Positions 1-3,000 are shown, counted from the first letter of the stretch. The stretch: 64,000 nucleotides of DNA from Escherichia coli (GCF_045037415.1 NZ_CP173438.1); one strand, 5' to 3'. Numbers: made by a program.

Positions 1-3000
1 TTCTTGCCGCCAGACGCTGTTCTGCTGAACAGCCCCGGACCTCTGCCTCGATGGCATACAGTTCACCGATACGCTGCAGGGCTTCCGTGGTGATGTAGGT
101 GGGCGCTCTTGCATGCACATCGTGGATTTTTCTCCGGGCATGAGCCATACACGCGGCTTCCGTTATTCTGCCGGATTCGTATAACGCCCGGTAACCACCG
201 TAAGCATCGGCCTGAAGCACACCGCTGTAACCGGCCAGGTGATTTTGTGGATGGATACCTTTCCGGTCCGGACTGTACGCGAACCAGACCGCCGGGGGCA
301 TCTGTGAACCGGCGTTACGGTCATCACGGACGTAGACCCACAGCCGGGCTGTCCGGGTTTTACCGCTGCCCGGCTCCTGGACCGGGACGGGGATATCATC
401 AGCATGGACTTTACCGGGCATCAGCACATACTGGCGCAGGACGTCATACAGCGGCTCCAGCAGTTCAGCAACAGCACCTGTCCAGCGCCCCAGTGTGGCA
501 CGGCTCAGCTCCACTCCCTGACGACGGTATATTTCTGACTGGCGGTATAACGGCAGATGGTCTGCATATTTCCCGGTGACAACATGGGCCAGAAGCCCCG
601 CTCCGGCATAACTGCGTGCAATGGGTTTTGAAGGTACTGGTGCCTGCACGATATGGTCGCACCGGCAACAGGCCTGTTTCGGACGTTGTGTTTCGATAAC
701 CTTAAAGGCGCTGCTGATAAGCTCCAGTTGCTCTGACACATCACATCCCAGAGAACTGAGTTCACCACCACAGGCAGGACAGCATTCCTCTTCCGGCCGG
801 ATAACCCGGGTTTCACGGGGAAGTGAGGCCGGTAACGGTTTACGGGCTGAAGACTGGCGCAGGGCGGATGGCAGTACCGGGTCATATTGCTCACCCAGCG
901 TTTCCGCCATTTCTTCCTGAAGTGCGCTGATTCGCTCCTGTGCTTCCTGTATCTGCCGTTCGGTTTTTGCACGAAGTTTTTCTGAGCTTTTACCGAACTG
1001 CATACGTTGCAGTTTCGCAACCAGCGCCTTCAGCCGGTTGATTTCGGAAGCATAAGCCGCCACCCGCTGTGAGAGCAGGCGGTTGTATTCAGCCATCTGG
1101 CGGATGGTGTCCTGTTGCGTCTGCAACAGTGCCCGCAGGCGGGCGTTCTCATGAGCAAGTGAGGTGTCCATATCCTCACTTTACAACGGGTTATATGCGG
1201 ATTCCAGCGCGTTCCGTTCGTTTCGGGTGCTTCCAGTTGATACCTTCAAGAAGCATGGATAACTGAGCCGGAGTAAGGTGCACCTTGCCGTCACGGGTGA
1301 CTGGCCAGACGAAGCGGCCCCGCTCCAGGCGTTTGGTGAAGAGGCACAGTCCGTCACTGTCAGCCCACAACACTTTTATCTGGTCACCCCGGCGTCCGCG
1401 GAAGATGAACAGGTGTCCGGAGAACGGGTCATCCTTCAGGACGTTCTGAACTTTTGATGCCAGGCCGTTAAAGCCATTTCGCATATCGGTGATACCTGCA
1501 ACCAGCCAGATACGCGAACCTGCAGGGAGAGATATCATCAGTGGCTGCTCCCTTTTATTTCGCGGATAAGTGTCTGTAATAACGCCGGCGTCAGTTTACC
1601 TTTAAGCCTGAGAGTTCCGGCCGGCAGAACCAGCTCACAACACAGACTGTCGGACGGTGTATTTATCTGCTCTGGTTCCTGTGCGGGGGCCGGGATTTTA
1701 TTATCCGGCTCCGGCGTTAACGTCACGGGAAGCAGTGCCGGCATATTTTTTCCGGAAGGCAGCAGGCCACCTTTCCGGTATTGATGGCGCCAGTTGAAGA
1801 GCAGGTTATCGTTGATTCCGTTTTCCCGGGCGATCTGCGCCACACAGGCTCCGGGCTGCAGTGACTGCTCCACTAAGGCGATTTTAAACTCATAAGGGAA
1901 GTTGGGCCGCCGGGGACGTTTTTTTACCACGGGGGCTTCGGATATAACGGTGCTTTCAGGACGTACGACTGGTACCGTGGAAAATTGTCCGTAAAGGCAG
2001 GCATCAAGTTCCTGCTCCGACATGCCTGCGGGCAAAGGCCACGAAAGGCCAGCTCTCCGAAAGCGCACGAACATACTACAAACTGTTGATTTTGGTACAC
2101 CCAGGCGACGCCCGGCCACAACCCGGGGTAAATGTTCTTCAAAGTGAAGACGTAAAGCTTCAGTGATCCAGGTCCGGTGTTTCATACGATAGTGTCCATT
2201 AAAAATGATGGACATTATTTTTGTAGAGCCGGAGGAAACAGACCAGACGGTTTAAATGAGCCGGTTACTCATTGACGCCATTTTCACGTGCAATCTGTGC
2301 AACACAAGCTCCAGGTTGTGATGCCAGTTCCACCATACGAAGTTTGAATTCATTCGAATAGTTTTTACGAGGTTCTTTTCGCCAGTCCTGTAATTCCATA
2401 CTTAGATGTCCGTCTATATCAGATGGGCGTCTAAGTTACCAATTCTCGTCTGATGGCTACATACGGCGGTCAGTTTACGCTTACGCCACTGAAATGAAGA
2501 ATTCAGAGAGACTGAATGATATGTCGCACCTTCAGTGAATAGTGTAAAAACTGGGATATTCTCATCCGGGATTACCCACTCATACTCAATGCGTAACTTT
2601 AGTGCGGCCCCCACAGGTAAGAGCCGGACACATTCGTTGTGTATGCTGCAGAATCGGTAACCGGAGGCCCTGCGGTCCTTAACTCAGTGTCTTGTGTTGC
2701 TCATTTGCCACAAAGTCCTGGTACGCCTGCTCAATCATTTCATTCAGCAGTTTTTTTGGGAGGACACCACGACTTCGGGCAATACTTTCAAGCTGTTTGT
2801 GGATTTTTCCGGACAGTTTCAGCGGGACGGAACCATCAGCACGTTCATCACGCCTTTTTTGTTGCTCCCGGGCACTTTTCAGCTCATCAAGAAGAATCGC
2901 TTTATGCTGAATCCTGGGGGCCTGGAAGGAGGCCTGCGTAAACTTCGCTCTGTTCCGTCTGGGATTACTTTCCAGTAAAAACTGTACCTGTTGCTCATTC

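Follow-up and report, generated by a model that had tools for sequence, protein, structure and literature searches.

Near the start of a 64,000-bp stretch of an Escherichia coli genome (GCF_045037415.1, NZ_CP173438.1; hereafter the window, numbered from its first base) lie parts of two different insertion sequence (IS) elements of the IS66 family, ISCro1 and ISEc23. We are confident, short of certainty, that they form a nested insertion of ISCro1 into ISEc23, produced by two successive ordinary transpositions in a genomic island of E. coli sequence type 131 (ST131). ISEc23 (2532 bp) would first have entered an unoccupied intergenic position, with duplication of the 8 bp GCCACTGA; ISCro1 (2699 bp) would then have entered ISEc23 in the same orientation at positions 209-216 (GTCAATGA), in codons 42-44 of its tnpA gene. 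The outcome would be a 216-bp left end of ISEc23 stranded between ISCro1 and the chromosomal flank, with a 44-amino acid (aa) open reading frame (ORF) as a by-product. The initial annotation, made from the sequence alone, had read this ORF as a second, truncated orf1 copy and had proposed successive IS66-type insertions or an IS-mediated rearrangement. Successive insertion agrees with what we find; in addition, the truncated element is, by parsimony, the older one, two different IS species are involved, and the stop codon of the fragment comes from the ISCro1 terminus.

The features at this end of the window are as follows.

1-2268, minus strand: ISCro1, IS66 family, positions 1-2268 of the 2699-bp element
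2-1171, minus strand: ISCro1 tnpC, DDE transposase, codons 1-390 of 523, cut by the window edge
1191-1538, minus strand: ISCro1 tnpB, accessory protein, 115 aa (ORF, Pfam and NCBIfam)
1538-2215, minus strand: ISCro1 tnpA, accessory protein, 225 aa (ORF, Pfam and NCBIfam)
2239-2268, minus strand: ISCro1 left inverted repeat (IRL), starting GTAACCGGCTCATTTAAACCGTCTGG, terminal base 2268 (junction alignment)
2265-2399, minus strand: truncated ISEc23 tnpA ORF, 44 aa, ATG at 2399 (ORF list)
2269-2276, minus strand: GTCAATGA, the 8 bp adjoining the ISCro1 IRL, ISEc23 positions 209-216
2269-2484, minus strand: ISEc23 left-end remnant, IS66 family, positions 1-216 of the 2532-bp element
2455-2484, minus strand: ISEc23 IRL, starting GTAAGCGTAAACTGACCGCCGTATG, terminal base 2484
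2485-2492: GCCACTGA, the window copy of the ISEc23 8-bp target duplication (comparison with strain THO-003, locus L003)

The ISEc23 remnant and its junction with ISCro1

Window 2269-2484 is identical at 216 of 216 nucleotides to the complete ISEc23 element of THO-003, and the ISEc23 copies at two further loci (L001 and L004) match the same 216-bp stretch; agreement of this extent is far beyond chance. The complete element is 2532 bp long, and the Prokaryotic Genome Annotation Pipeline (PGAP) names its transposase "ISEc23 family". Its IRL, GTAAGCGTAAACTGACC, starts at 2484 with GTAAGCG and matches its right inverted repeat (IRR) at 22 of 30 positions. The remnant, the first 8.5% of the element, holds the IRL, 85 bp of leader and the first 43 2/3 codons of tnpA.

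The left junction is observed directly and is exact: in the junction alignment the break in ISEc23 coincides with the terminal nucleotide of the ISCro1 IRL. Where intact ISEc23 reads ...GGC GTC AAT GAT AAT GTT..., the window reads ...GGC GTC AAT GA/G TAA CCGGCTC... (the slash marks the junction). ISEc23 thus accounts for codons 1-43 and the first two bases of codon 44, and the terminal GTAA of ISCro1 for the rest, namely the last base of codon 44 (GAT to GAG, D to E) and a TAA stop codon. The intact ISEc23 TnpA is 141 aa long and continues past the break as ...NGVNDNVIFKW. Translation of the 44-aa ORF reproduces letter for letter the peptide quoted in the initial annotation (MELQDWRKEPRKNYSNEFKLRMVELASQPGACVAQIARENGVNE, followed by the stop).

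The helix-turn-helix motif of this peptide had been likened to that of the neighboring tnpA product, and rightly so, since both Pfam and NCBIfam place the fragment in the TnpA helix-turn-helix family; its Pfam HTH_Tnp_1 match covers only profile positions 4-37 of 75. The peptide is 62% identical to residues 98-136 of ISCro1 TnpA, which marks it as a paralogue and not as a repeat of the neighboring gene. No nucleotide homology between ISEc23 and ISCro1 was found at the junction, and elsewhere the two elements share only scattered patches of 64-76% identity. Because it ends in the middle of the helix-turn-helix domain, the 44-aa peptide is most likely non-functional. The host ISEc23 copy has lost its intact tnpA, and the ORF is properly annotated as a truncated ISEc23 tnpA pseudogene, not as a gene.

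The ISCro1 element

Megablast against 5,426 complete E. coli genomes matches window 1-2268, at 100% identity, to complete elements with the annotation "IS66-like element ISCro1 family". This is 84% of the element, with tnpA and tnpB intact; the right 431 bp, including the IRR, fall beyond the window start. From one target duplication to the other, at L002 (a locus with a complete copy) and at other loci, the element measures 2699 bp; in L002 the full tnpC gene has 1572 bp. According to the ORF list, every coding sequence in window 1-2500 runs on the minus strand. A tnpA-tnpB-tnpC array of the IS66 type had been described here, and its family and gene order hold, but only part of tnpC is inside the window and the array is therefore not complete. 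The fragment had also been placed beyond the array; on the coding strand it sits upstream of tnpA-tnpB-tnpC.

The three proteins have the expected domains. TnpC matches Pfam LZ_Tnp_IS66, zf-IS66 and DDE_Tnp_IS66 (E 2e-70) as well as NCBIfam transpos_IS66; TnpB matches Pfam TnpB_IS66 (E 4.7e-40) and NCBIfam IS66_TnpB; TnpA matches Pfam HTH_Tnp_1 at residues 102-159 and NCBIfam IS66_access_TnpA (E 1e-88). The NCBIfam IS66 equivalog models score above their cut-offs for the window proteins. At 225 aa, ISCro1 TnpA is longer than the 141-aa TnpA of ISEc23; we found no Pfam domain in its extra ~100 N-terminal residues, and the NCBIfam model NF038385 covers residues 13-206. The TGA stop of tnpA overlaps the tnpB ATG as ATGA (1536-1540), which fits the translational coupling by which the three IS66-family proteins are made, as described in a passage of PMC3469429 that cites Han et al. 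2001.

The left end of ISCro1, seen in the window, is GTAACCGGCTCATTTAAACCG, and its right end, seen in complete copies such as L002, is GTAAGCGACTCGTCAGAACCG; the two repeats agree at 18 of 30 positions, the IRR beginning with GTAAGCG. Fifteen complete copies in varied contexts (L002, L004-L006, L009-L012 and L015-L020, plus L001, which is interrupted by an IS3-family element) all terminate at GTAACCGG and then run into unrelated DNA without the 216-bp segment. Among 12 mapped copies, 11 are flanked by perfect 8-bp direct repeats and one by a 9-bp repeat (the copy in L019). The name ISCro1 comes from Citrobacter rodentium ICC168, which has 24 copies (PMC3072379). ISCro1 is a resident element of ST131: it occurs upstream of afa in the ST131 strain EC958 (PMC8764528), and our ISCro1 query has a median of 3 matching places per genome, with 2 to 15 in the ST131-like records listed.

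Insertion site and order of events

The state of the insertion site in other genomes bears on the history of the window. In the ST131 strain THO-003 a complete ISEc23 occupies the site, with GCCACTGA at either end, and window 2265-6500 is 99.98% identical to that locus; the junction between the ISEc23 IRL and the flank is found as in the window in 67 complete genomes. A synthetic empty-site query finds the site uninterrupted, with GCCACTGA present once, in 806 genomes including EC958 and JJ1886, so the ancestral ST131 state is the empty one. Many ST131 (O25b:H4) chromosomes match window 2485-12000 at 100% identity, and in EC958 the region lies within a genomic island near a tRNA-Asn cluster. 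Since empty and ISEc23-only alleles both exist at the same target, parsimony places ISEc23 first and ISCro1 second, and we infer the order of events on that ground.

The 8 bp next to the ISCro1 IRL, GTCAATGA at 2269-2276, are the expected target-site duplication of ISCro1, to judge from the direct repeats around its other copies. Just beyond the window start there would then be a second GTCAATGA and the remaining 2316 bp of ISEc23. Simple nesting predicts, in order, ISCro1 2269-2699 ending ...GACGAGTCGCTTAC (coding strand), GTCAATGA, ISEc23 217-2532, GCCACTGA and a right flank ...GACTGTAGCCGGG (plus strand).

The L002 copy of ISCro1 lies almost at the site of ISEc23 in THO-003, and we considered whether ISCro1 had there replaced ISEc23 by recombination or precise deletions. 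This was rejected because the L002 copy has its own 8-bp duplication, GGCCACTG, 1 bp from GCCACTGA, and because the empty site is the common ST131 state; the L002 ISCro1 and the ISEc23 at GCCACTGA are independent insertions.

Alternative explanations

Several points weigh against the nested insertion as set out above. Everything from the right end of ISCro1 onward lies outside the window, so that neither a second GTCAATGA nor the remainder of ISEc23 is seen. Searches of the 5,426 complete E. coli genomes, of metagenome contigs and of GTDB species representatives gave no exact ISCro1/ISEc23 junction, the complete E. coli genomes did not yield the predicted right junction in one piece, and the full nested structure is thus without confirmation from any independent genome. 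The names ISCro1 and ISEc23 are RefSeq/PGAP product names and do not come from an ISfinder comparison.

With the far side hidden because the window stops inside ISCro1, nesting could have been followed by further rearrangement, in which the distal part of ISEc23 was lost or moved through an ISCro1-mediated adjacent deletion or inversion, or through recombination between ISCro1 copies. Each ST131 genome has several ISCro1 copies that could recombine, and clusters of truncated IS66 elements are common in other genomes (L006, L007). We nevertheless think such a sequel unlikely, as there is no positive evidence for it, the junction that can be seen is the clean end of a transposition event, and two other complete nestings (L005 and, with the roles reversed, L004) keep both halves of the host element and the 8-bp duplication. 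It is very unlikely that an ISEc23::ISCro1 composite was made elsewhere and arrived whole, whether it transposed by its ISEc23 ends with the help of trans-acting proteins or was brought in by homologous recombination in the flanks. Other ISEc23 copies in the genome could indeed provide TnpA, TnpB and TnpC, and ST131 is recombinogenic; however, 67 genomes carry plain ISEc23 at the exact target with near-identical flanks, a second hit there by a 5.2-kb composite is less parsimonious, and the composite junction has no second occurrence in the collections searched.

Insertion sequences are notorious places for misassembly and only this window has the junction, so a false join of two IS66-family repeats has to be weighed as well. 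Repeat collapse would join the elements within shared sequence, whereas here there is no nucleotide homology at the join, which falls exactly on the terminal base of the ISCro1 inverted repeat, and equivalent nestings occur in finished genomes; we regard an artefact as extremely improbable. That the fragment is an internal or terminal duplication belonging to ISCro1 itself, the possibility that the initial annotation had named as the one that would overturn its reading, is suggested by the resemblance of the peptide to ISCro1 TnpA. This explanation is already refuted: the 15 complete copies stop at the IRL terminus and abut unrelated flanks, and the fragment is 100% ISEc23 at the nucleotide level, at a position where ISCro1 and ISEc23 show no similarity. 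The nested insertion of ISCro1 into ISEc23 stays the reading we prefer; as an insertion of one known element into another, it is ordinary biology.

Related nestings and comparison with known elements

Nesting among IS66-family elements is recurrent. In strain CS5L (L005) ISCro1 lies inside ISEc23 tnpA at positions 164-171, and the two halves of the host element are still present, with an 8-bp duplication; in strain 2013C-4991 (L006) it lies at about 155-160 of an ISEc23-like element; and in strain 51489 (L004) it is ISEc23 that lies inside ISCro1 tnpA, at 544-551. With the window, ISCro1 has entered the first ~220 bp of ISEc23 or ISEc23-like elements three separate times. Two other loci, L001 and L007, each have an ISCro1 right end shortly upstream of an ISEc23 left end, at distances of 43 bp and 112 bp.

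The IS66 family, as defined on IS679 and IS66, has three consecutive genes, a DDE transposase TnpC and inverted repeats of 20-30 bp. The elements described here resemble it in gene order, TnpC, inverted repeats and the 8-bp direct repeats of their other copies. Family inverted repeats are described as starting GTAAGCG, with direct repeats of 8 bp (PMC11946415); the ISCro1 IRL begins GTAACCG instead, and otherwise we see no difference of substance. The window copy shares with ISCro1 the tnpA-tnpB-tnpC order, the ATGA overlap and an IRL starting GTAA, and other ISCro1 copies make 8-bp duplications. The length that we measure (2699 bp) differs from the 2,824 bp quoted for the ST131 copy upstream of afa (PMC8764528). 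For ISEc23, the insertion site and 8-bp duplication in the window are those of THO-003.

An apparent insertion hot spot

The flank into which ISEc23 inserted is part of a short region in which IS66-family insertions appear to be frequent. Positions in it are given as E coordinates, those of the EC958 empty-site reference (L008, about 42900-43300), in which E1201 corresponds to window 2485; the rest of the region is displaced by IS elements.

2485-2585 (E1201-1301): the part of the apparent hot spot inside the window, a convergent intergenic region downstream of a 390-aa ORF (2679-3851)

By our count, the 378 bp of E924-1301 have received ISCro1 or ISEc23 independently at least 16 times among E. 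coli genomes, in both orientations. The 16 mapped loci (11 ISCro1 and five ISEc23) occupy 15 different positions, and their direct repeats are perfect 8-bp repeats in 14 cases, 9 bp in one and 26 bp in one. In the last of these (L021, NZ_OZ369365.1), where the ISEc23 junctions are at about 1120 and 3652 of the locus, the direct repeat is TATTCTCATCCGGGATTACCCACTCA. ISCro1 inserted twice at one 8-mer, CAAGACAG, once in each orientation (L010 and L018). The first ten mapped insertions all had the orientation seen in the window, which proved to be an artefact because BLAST joins pieces on one strand only; a query in the opposite orientation gave 20 more genomes with at least 11 different spacings. 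A control of the same design, anchored 2.5 kb away in the same island (control region at window 4225-4950), showed no insertions; it replaced a combined control query with four IS ends, which was uninformative because it was swamped by IS-IS clusters. This census is biased, covering two IS species and one control region with events not collapsed on a phylogeny, and we treat it as a lead and not as a result.

The hexamer ACTGAA/TTCAGT is enriched in the hot region (five copies against 0.32 expected), and target duplications overlap its core pentamer TTCAG/CTGAA in 5 of 15 cases against 14% by chance (P = 0.05). As the latter is only marginally above chance, we make no claim for a target motif. 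The hot region has no homology to IS66 ends and no Rfam families, and no sigma-70 promoter or terminator consensus was found in window 2100-2750. The EC958 empty site has a GC-rich inverted repeat at E1161-1203 (GGCCCCGG, 27 nt, CCGGGGCC), mostly in the off-window right flank, and the predicted hairpin ends right at the targets of four insertions (L012, L011, L002 and that shared by L003 and the window). Our literature search found no published account of this hot spot or of a target preference in the IS66 family. The closest parallel is the afa regulatory region of ST131 (PMC8764528), which likewise has IS-in-IS insertions and a short stretch hit repeatedly in different strains; unlike there, the hits here are by two members of one family, over 378 bp and in both orientations.

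Neighboring features

The 390-aa ORF at 2679-3851 (minus strand) lies immediately upstream of the IS insertions, with its 3' end bordering the hot-spot region. RefSeq annotates a 381-aa "hypothetical protein" at the same place, and the ORF has no Pfam or NCBIfam match. Another layered IS site of this island is at ~4950-6400, where IS21-family and AAA-ATPase pseudogene fragments precede a copy of IS100 (IS21 family; istA at 5349-6371). At 19963-20389 there is a relic, the right end of an IS66-family element, with 83.6% identity to ISEc23 positions 2088-2532; the EC958 annotation calls it a frameshifted, incomplete IS66 family transposase, and it has no connection with the missing part of the nested ISEc23 copy.

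Implications

Because the exact ISCro1/ISEc23 junction was absent from every complete E. coli genome searched, it could tag an ST131 sub-lineage and so serve as a strain marker. On a more tentative note, and at somewhat less than even odds in our judgment, the nested insertion may itself be an instance of a regional target preference in IS66-family elements, which the hot spot and the repeated entry of ISCro1 into the first ~220 bp of ISEc23 or ISEc23-like elements would both reflect. If that is true, some feature of these regions draws the IS66 transposition complex over a few hundred bp; it has no simple consensus, and could be a DNA structure or a bound protein. If confirmed, it would be a first way into the question of how the IS66 family, whose mechanism is poorly understood, chooses its targets.

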